A DNA stretch of 25,518 nucleotides from IMG/VR virus record IMGVR_UViG_3300033076_000483, positions 1-25,518 of that record; one strand, given 5' to 3'. Below are positions 5,987-6,943 of the stretch, one piece after another. Position numbers and translations under genes: made by a program. The notes below the pieces were generated by a model that worked only from the letters and a program-made list of their open reading frames with translations, did no database searches and was not told where the DNA came from. The stretch is from a virus. Its lineage: Duplodnaviria; Caudoviricetes. Position 1 is the stretch's first letter; each line of letters starts with the position of its first letter.

Positions 5987-6538
5987 TTAGAAACTAAAGC
6001 CTAGACCAACACCAAATGCGTTCTCTTTGATTGTCTGACCGCTACGTGATGCGTTCAAGTTAAGAGAAACTTGTTTTGCAACTGGAATGCTGTATGTAGC
6101 AAAACCAACTGTTTGTTTAGTGCGAGCACCATCTTCTGTGGAACCAACACGTGTCTTAACACCAGTCAACAAGAAACCTGGACCAACTGGCAAACCATAA
6201 GTTGCACCAACTAGACCATAGTTATATCCTGTTCCGCCGTTGAAACCATTGTCGTGGCCAACACCAACAAATGGTGTGATTCCCTTAACATTCAAACTGT
6301 TTTTTGCAGCAGTTACTTCAACTGAACTTAGTGAACCAGAACCATCTTTGAATTTAGCGGTACGACCTTGTAGACCATACTGGATACCACCAATTTCTTT
6401 ACCTGCACGAATGTATTGTGCGGTGCTGTCGGCAGAACCATTACGACCTAAAACATTGTCAACATCAACTGAAACATAGTTAGCTGCTGATGCTGCGAAT
6501 GCCAACATTGCAAGGCTTGCGATTGCTATTTTCTTCAT
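5987..6538 (-). CDS. Small outer-membrane beta-barrel protein
   Basis: Sec signal peptide (MKKIAIASLAMLAFAASA), alternating amphipathic strands rich in Gly/Tyr, and C-terminal beta-signal FGVGLGFSF ending in Phe. Confidence 0.8.
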   Translation of the reverse strand: MKKIAIASLAMLAFAASAANYVSVDVDNVLGRNGSADSTAQYIRAGKEIGGIQYGLQGRTAKFKDGSGSLSSVEVTAAKNSLNVKGITPFVGVGHDNGFNGGTGYNYGLVGATYGLPVGPGFLLTGVKTRVGSTEDGARTKQTVGFATYSIPVAKQVSLNLNASRSGQTIKENAFGVGLGFSF

Positions 6539-6553
6539 AAAAACTCCTATAAT

Positions 6554-6592
6554 AAAAAAATAGTTGGTTATTCTGTTACGAGGAAACCAACC
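6554..6592 (-). terminator. Terminator-like hairpin at the 3' end of the tmRNA coding piece
   Basis: The - strand has a GGTTGGTT...AACCAACT stem followed by ATTTTTTT. Confidence 0.6.
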
Positions 6593-6609
6593 GAAACCCT
6601 AGTCAGCGT

Positions 6610-6642
6610 TTAGGCTGCCAATGCGAACTTTTCATCGTTTGC
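6610..6642 (-). other. tmRNA tag reading frame ANDEKFALAA*
   Basis: GCA AAC GAT GAA AAG TTC GCA TTG GCA GCC TAA, a canonical proteobacterial-type ssrA degron. Confidence 0.93.
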
Positions 6643-6914
6643 GTTTACTTTAATTAGTTTTTATAACTACTCTGTTAAGTTGTCCACTTCTATACTCTTT
6701 ACCCTGTCGAAACCAATGCATCCCCATCAAAAGAATTCTATCTAAGAGGCCGGTGTCGCCTTCGTGCCACAGGTTCACTTGTTACTGCTTGACACCAGTT
6801 CACCGCACGACTCAATGCCGGATACGGTACACGTAGAATTCTTTTGGTGGAGATGGGGGGAGTCGAACCCCCGTCCAGAATACTTTTCAAGTTGCTTCAT
6901 ACAACCATAATCAC

Positions 6915-6943
6915 ATTATACATAAAAAATCTTTACTTGTCAA
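6915..6943 (-). promoter_or_regulatory. Consensus sigma70 promoter of the tmRNA
   Basis: TTGACA (6943-6938), 17-nt spacer, TATAAT (6920-6915): a perfect consensus match. Confidence 0.9.

Follow-up and report, generated by a model that had tools for sequence, protein, structure and literature searches.

The spacer (IVS) of a two-piece, permuted phage tmRNA gene holds a structured RNA module that is conserved and covarying, is exchanged between tmRNA genes, and occurs on three scaffolds in unrelated phages. As to its role, the module may well be a stem-clamped small RNA that decoys a conserved host protein in trans, a reading which we prefer to the alternatives weighed below and hold tentatively.

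The module was recognized in a 25.5-kb virus record (hereafter the window, that is, the whole stretch of 25,518 nucleotides analyzed), which carries a T4-like gene set comprising single-strand binding protein, helicase loader, late-transcription regulator, rIIA, rIIB, PhoH, and exonuclease. The permuted tmRNA gene lies on the minus strand between the exonuclease gene (7593-6940) and a 183-aa ORF of no family; it was called by ARAGORN at 6937-6519 (minus strand) with the tag ANDEKFALAA*, and scores 127 bits with both RF04321 and RF01850. All features expected of a permuted tmRNA gene are present, namely an acceptor piece with CCA, an IVS, and a coding piece with the tag frame. Because the CCA occupies 6847-6845 and G+1, the end made in tmRNA by RNase P, is at 6725, the IVS spans 6844-6726 (119 nt). 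The parts of the gene are as follows:

6915..6943, minus strand: sigma-70-type promoter, 12/12 consensus, 17-nt spacer, directly 5′ of the tmRNA
6845..6906, minus strand: tmRNA acceptor piece with T arm, CCA end at 6847-6845
6726..6844, minus strand: IVS, 119 nt, exchangeable cargo slot
6554..6725, minus strand: tmRNA coding piece from G+1 (6725), tag frame 6642-6610

A weak hairpin with a U run at 6591-6554, at the end of the coding piece, was not called as a terminator. The IVS itself was rejected as a coding region, considering that a 50-aa ORF at 6890-6738 has no Pfam match and that homologous IVSs differ by indels of 1-4 nt. The 183-aa ORF immediately following the tmRNA (5987-6538, minus strand) has a signal-peptide-like start and a terminal Phe and resembles, by eye, an outer-membrane beta-barrel; it has no PHROG or Pfam match.

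A sequence-only reading had singled out this spacer as a G+C-rich, structured candidate small RNA closed by a long stem and containing two crossing helices. Its coordinates are all correct: the 13-bp stem (6846-6834/6740-6728) is perfect on re-checking, the G+C count of the loop is 52/93, and both crossing helices exist in the window sequence. The same properties were set against chance controls. As many as 80 of 25,425 segments of 93 nt in the window, located in three regions, reach 52/93; some 6-bp helix appears in 1003 of 2000 shuffles, and a crossing pair of 6 and 8 bp in 40 of 2000. Compared to shuffled sequences, the inner 93 nt alone show no gain in folding stability (z +0.46), versus z -3.09 when the stem is included, and the long closing stem is not special, being present in nearly all phage IVSs folded. 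On its own, the single sequence is thus suggestive only and weak evidence; the case rests on the homologs.

The first homolog (L074) came from the loci of exonuclease relatives, and the hairpin common to the window and L074 was then used as a search pattern, which identified members in 16 of 26 loci from viral contigs, 12 of 17 from metagenomes, and one of three from genomes; the remaining matches to the pattern lacked the surrounding structure. Two further members were found by a closing-stem scan (L230) and a relaxed scan (L577), respectively. After removal of duplicates, the data set comprised 27 distinct copies of the module, 17 in phage tmRNA IVSs (class A, including the window) and 10 on other scaffolds, with one copy per locus and one in the window. 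In the four copies of class B (L205, L219, L254, L263), the module takes the position of the anticodon arm in a tRNA-like shell, which has hairpins resembling D and T arms and in most cases a long closing stem, and in the six copies of class C (L212, L221, L255, L258, L271, L577) it is mostly located between a long stem and a T-arm-like hairpin; these scaffold labels were assigned by reading the sequences, and a script check of the 10 non-tmRNA copies found no convincing enclosing clamp for L254, L212, and L258. The L263 copy lies within a tRNA array, and L271 belongs to a lambdoid prophage of a Rhodoferax MAG, in which the module is located between a CI-like repressor gene and the genes for RecE, a methylase, and an integrase. 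Promoter sites scoring 9-12 out of 12 were found 5′ of all 12 class-A loci checked.

Searches for additional members were largely negative. An exact window word around one of the crossing helices, B, had no match in viral contigs because the homologs differ there. Three relaxed scans, two of which covered 62 and 37 of the 64 collection parts, added one new member: two of the three (120 loci each; 110 scored with model R2 and 10 known member contigs) yielded none, and the third (20 loci) yielded one. Model R2 run over 150 genus-level genomes recovered the known Rhodoferax prophage only, and an IVS hairpin with loop ends resembling the module loop (L070:6140-6241; model E 0.69) was not counted as a member. 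Neither the IVS nor the class B and C copies retrieved the module from annotated phages and plasmids by BLAST; the matches were due to chance or to the D- and T-arm scaffold of Caulobacter phage DMCA, which carries a different cargo. The DMCA shell (L561:2501-2627), composed of a long stem, D-arm-like and T-arm-like hairpins, and variable cargo at the anticodon position, is unannotated and lies between a transposase and an integrase gene. Three unrelated phages with arrays of small structured RNAs (L219, L221, L263) have a short hairpin unit in common 5′ of the module, and in L221 a weak anti-hemB match (E 2e-5, below the cut-off) is found 3′ of it.

Comparison of these copies yielded a predicted fold with the following elements:

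6728..6846, minus strand: P1 clamp stem, 6846-6834 with 6740-6728, 13 bp
6763..6833, minus strand: portable core module; P2 (6833-6829 with 6767-6763) closes the predicted three-way junction
6802..6828, minus strand: P3 hairpin, with a junction A-U base pair followed by a conserved GA; the distal part varies in length and sequence
6768..6791, minus strand: P4, with pair 6791-6768, a 2-nt purine bulge, a 4-bp stem (6788-6785/6772-6769), and a 12-nt loop (6784-6773)
6747..6761, minus strand: P5 hairpin, 4 bp with a 7-nt loop; classes A and B
6751..6797, minus strand: predicted pseudoknot, 6797-6792 with 6756-6751 (core of helix B-B′), complete only in class A

Two pairs of P1 belong to the CCA of the tmRNA, leaving 11 bp once the CCA is taken by the tmRNA. 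In the 17 class-A sequences, the full model (P1-P5 plus pseudoknot) has 96.3% of cells paired, compared to 35-51% in slid controls, and nine pairs show two-sided change, a count reached in none of 500 shuffles; given that the class-A members are close relatives, these covariation counts are not independent events. Two-sided changes were observed in two of the five pairs of P2 in class A and in all five across classes (14 sequences), as well as in three of the four pairs of P5 (class A), and the pair 6791-6768 forms across classes as CG (6), UA (5), AU (1), or GC (1). Across-class two-sided changes amount to 32 cells versus 8.5 in shuffles. P2, P3, and pair 6791-6768, none of which was included in the search patterns, were recovered in the class B and C copies by a descriptor; the portable core is thus the predicted three-way junction P2-P3-P4 with its 12-nt loop. 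This loop is near-invariant over the 27 copies, with variants at two positions only, an invariance that is partly built in since members were found by that hairpin. Thus, covariation supports a predicted three-way junction with a near-invariant hairpin, plus a 3′ hairpin. A competing fold is favored by MFE and RNAalifold, both of which extend P4 in place of P2; the nested part of the covariation model lies 7.7 kcal/mol higher than the MFE when the pseudoknot is left out of the score. The P2 fold and the extended-P4 fold would be mutually exclusive, and a switch between them is possible.

Collectively, the homolog alignments and the Rfam scan identify the spacer as a conserved, covarying structured RNA of no Rfam family: once aligned, the homologous spacers are neither short nor random, and they covary. 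The IVS is therefore real and under selection, but is folded differently from the drawing in the sequence-only reading. Of the two crossing helices in that drawing, B-B′ is retained in part, its 5-bp core being paired in 98.8% of cells over the 17 IVSs but without two-sided change in the aligned columns. Helix A-A′ fares worse, with 56.9% of cells paired, and its 3′ strand pairs with 6833-6829 (P2) instead; the first copy of a proposed GUGAAC repeat and an alternative CCGG/CCGG closure are not conserved among the homologs. That reading also missed the portability of the module across phages and scaffolds and the nature of the IVS as an exchangeable slot.

The IVS is indeed an exchangeable slot, and the module moves between tmRNA genes. 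Among 15 class-A loci, mean identity is 0.89 in the IVS versus 0.71 and 0.64 in the two tmRNA flanks. Conversely, the tmRNA bodies closest to that of the window (L001, L085, L147, L168; 0.93-0.97 identity) contain unrelated spacers (0.36-0.47). In a tree built from 73 tmRNA bodies with the spacer removed, eight changes are needed to account for the 13 carriers of the module, at least four of them forced by starred, well-supported branches, with the bootstrap not fully settled. The 73 distinct phage IVSs, in a survey that left out three apparent misparses and one bacterial row, range from 40 to 237 nt, so that a length of 119 nt is not unusual among these phages; 60 of the 73 lack the module, with a median of 76.5 nt, and 16 of these reach 100 nt. 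In gene form and in its position from CCA to G+1, the IVS of the window is like those of permuted tmRNA genes in general (RF04321, RF01850), and one bacterial IVS (L532) has a closing stem with the same ends. Unlike the bacterial IVSs L531 and L532, which are about 30 and 40 nt versus 119 nt, the IVS of the window holds a covarying module also found outside tmRNA.

Other phage spacers hold tRNA-like arms or small ORFs, and Rfam identified no cargo family in 20 loci with other IVSs (tRNA-clan overlaps being hidden in the output). T-loop-like hairpins, apparently tRNA-derived cargo, are found in the IVSs of L002, L055, L091, L124, L130, and L168. The small IVS ORFs (L013, L068, L137, L012, L082, L193) have an ATG at the 15th base from the CCA start, preceded by a purine-rich stretch within the clamp; one family is hydrophobic and Trp-rich, another is Cys-rich, and a similar IVS ORF was noted by eye in L061. 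Most of these ORFs continue past G+1 into the coding piece, so that processing would leave a non-stop message. A second cargo family of 66 nt (IVSs of L011, L025, L232, L233) has the first part of the clamp in common with the window and, like the module, is found on divergent tmRNA bodies. One IVS (L132:721-960) contains two clamped cargo units in tandem with a short acceptor-like, CCA-ended hairpin between them, an arrangement that suggests punctuation for separate release of the units.

We compared the module to known RNA families and host RNAs. Rfam returned no match for the class A, B, or C copies. A tRNA or tRNA-like cargo was rejected, there being no T-loop, no ARAGORN tRNA call in the window, and no Rfam match for 6726-6846 at E<=10; likewise, hammerhead, twister, twister-sister, pistol, and hatchet ribozymes were rejected on the lack of Rfam matches for all three classes. 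When checked for a nested double pseudoknot, class A showed a single crossing helix and class C lacked one; no inner P1.1-type pairing was seen. Theta ribozymes require a catalytic C that opens J4/2 and a cleavage site no farther than 5 nt from the tRNA end (PMC10879173). In the module, the corresponding linker contains a single C, which pairs in P5 and is not invariant (C15/U2), and the first helix begins at 6833, at a distance of 12 nt from the CCA. ToxI-type antitoxins are tandem pseudoknot repeats, and mimicry of these was rejected given the lack of tandem repeats and the single copy per locus. A sarcin-ricin bulged-G motif (AGUA/GAA) can be drawn in 26 of the 27 copies, the U being changed in L577, and the G-C/G-U variation in the hairpin fits the other register rather than this drawing. 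The GNRA tetraloop, the recognized element of the sarcin-ricin loop, is lacking here, the loop in the corresponding register being CAAG or CAAU. Several short words are common to class A and the 3′-terminal 60 nt of E. coli 16S rRNA, which is the best rRNA window for six of six copies in a post hoc test on close relatives; for classes B and C it is the best window in none of six copies, and Rhodoferax 16S rRNA gives a weaker signal. A second word cluster, at 23S 449-535, indicates that such clusters arise easily. The likenesses to the 16S end and to the sarcin-ricin loop are accordingly candidate leads only.

The best ungapped match of the 20-nt hairpin in the E. coli and Rhodoferax rRNA operons is 13-14/20, that is, no host rRNA template was found there. 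A pattern with up to two mismatches occurs in 13 of 401 family-level genomes, no more than a reversed control, the only exact match being the known prophage, and the one-mismatch pattern occurs in two of 400 order-level genomes, the second without the structure. Since the Rhodoferax prophage supplies the only exact copy in these 401 family-level and 400 order-level genomes, the module does not belong to the core RNAs of the host.

Several functions other than a decoy have to be considered. About 25 near-invariant bases in the junction, a class-A helix order resembling the outer pseudoknot of HDV-like ribozymes, and the occurrence of theta ribozymes at the 3′ ends of phage tRNAs (PMC10879173) would fit a new class of self-cleaving ribozyme aiding maturation of its tmRNA or tRNA-like carrier. 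Like theta ribozymes, the module is a structured phage RNA 3′ of a CCA end, with crossing helices in class A; unlike them, it is not adjacent to the CCA, has no conserved catalytic cytosine before the pseudoknot strand, and lacks the pseudoknot in class C. Considering further that no Rfam ribozyme matches, that maturation does not need the module since the 60 other phage IVSs do without it, and that the clamp would keep the cleavage products together, we regard a ribozyme as improbable. A junction combined with a pseudoknot, bases that stay fixed in the junction, and the lack of any constant position ahead of a gene could also suit a riboswitch-like aptamer without expression platform, which would sequester a small molecule (for example, a nucleotide immune signal) and reach high copy number from the strong promoter. 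However, no riboswitch family in Rfam matches, most of the fixed bases are in one exposed loop rather than across a pocket, and we know of no natural precedent for a small-molecule sponge aptamer, all of which makes this an unlikely function. Pairing of the 12-nt loop with a conserved host or phage transcript, as in an antisense small RNA, would account for the predicted single-strandedness of the loop and its near constancy over the 27 copies, but the longest same-strand complement in the 17 phage loci searched is 10 nt and none recurs, one loop position is G or U and so cannot keep a Watson-Crick partner, and the fixed junction is not explained by pairing; the chance that the module is antisense thus appears small.

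More dependent on genomic context is the proposal of a cis-acting nascent RNA akin to put, which would bind the host RNA polymerase and promote read-through into downstream early genes. Consistent with this proposal, the Rhodoferax copy lies between the repressor gene and the RecE, methylase, and integrase genes, and class A follows a strong promoter at a distance of about 150 nt in most loci, positions of the kind occupied by put RNAs (PMC9378689). Hairpins resembling terminators were also flagged downstream, in 11 of 21 loci, although these calls are weak and uncontrolled. Set against its published description, the HK022 put RNA is likewise a phage RNA of about 70 nt near early promoters, and its position fits some of the module copies; host-protein binding is proposed for the module. 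However, put consists of two stem-loops (PMC9378689), a topology different from a three-way junction within a clamp, the clamp closes only once the module has already been made, and one copy lies in a tRNA array. Furthermore, the module is enclosed in processing scaffolds, which suggests action in trans, unlike put, and we consider the cis-acting function a poor prospect. Finally, the slot is hypervariable, and high class-A identity could reflect the recent spread of a neutral, functionless passenger by recombination between tmRNA genes. P1, P2, P3, and P5 all show compensatory changes, and phages with little else in common have the same hairpin and junction, which makes a mere passenger very unlikely.

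We therefore return to the trans-acting decoy. The copies sit in closing stems or tRNA-like scaffolds, not at a fixed place before a start codon, and the combination of freely varying stems, fixed loop and junction bases, and three scaffolds resembling processing substrates points to a surface that would be read in trans by a conserved partner. The clamp and the acceptor helix together form 21 pairs with one mismatch; as the clamp extends the acceptor helix, the cargo could vary without disturbing processing. Under the proposed mechanism, the consensus promoter would drive strong early transcription, and the clamp would insulate the cargo and preserve the tRNA-like domain in a form that RNase P can process. 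An endonucleolytic cut near the CCA would then leave the module whole, freed or displayed in the course of tmRNA processing by the host. Its fixed loop and junction bases would be read by an RNA-binding protein of the host, which would thereby be titrated; the most plausible candidates are a translation factor and a nuclease with an anti-phage or stress role. Against this scenario, exonucleolytic trimming of the trailer following RNase P cleavage would destroy the IVS, and survival of the excised piece depends on the endonucleolytic cut near the CCA.

A more specific and rather doubtful extension is that the module is a portable counter-defense RNA, sequestering either an anti-phage nuclease as a decoy or an immune signal as a sponge. 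Spacers of tmRNAs processed by the host, together with tRNA-like shells, could then conceivably serve as interchangeable scaffolds of a natural RNA display system, and the module might, with similar reserve, be passed between lytic T4-like and temperate phages.

Enzymes of tRNA processing cleave the precursors of permuted tmRNAs into two pieces, and the mature RNA no longer contains the IVS (PMC11915505). Two-piece tmRNAs of phages have been published, for instance that of Melnitz, although the word "intervening" does not appear in the available part of that paper (PMC9004378); in the available parts of two others (PMC10085705, PMC3978253), permuted tmRNA is mentioned only in passing. Published IVS inserts include an intact tRNA-Ala and a repetitive element (Nawrocki, Petrov and Williams 2025, PMC11915505), which are likewise foreign RNA elements nested in the IVS of a permuted tmRNA; unlike them, the module is neither a tRNA nor a repeat and is common to tRNA-like scaffolds of unrelated phages. 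The module may be among the 8,495 candidate RNAs from IMG/VR (PMC10690425), without annotation. A search of full-text literature for the loop sequence returned no paper, and topic searches, which covered few subscription journals, found no such module described. Thus, the slot has precedent, whereas the module and its three scaffolds are without precedent in the literature covered.

Known phage decoy RNAs, such as pseudo-ToxI repeats and RNA anti-CRISPRs, copy a recognizable host RNA in repeats or as solitary repeat units. The likeness of the module to these is in the proposed way of working, that is, an abundant phage RNA titrating a host protein; unlike them, it has no host template found and is present as one copy in the window.

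Whereas tmRNA spacers are treated as waste, here one of them holds a selected RNA that moves between tmRNA genes and unrelated phages. The question of why aquatic phages carry a two-piece tmRNA thereby becomes testable, as the cargo may be part of the benefit. With its short length, covariation-backed predicted fold, and three natural scaffolds, the module lends itself to simple cleavage, ligand, and pull-down assays. If the proposed role is true, it would add a class of RNA to the phage repertoire of host takeover and counter-defense, or else the module would represent a new ribozyme or aptamer.
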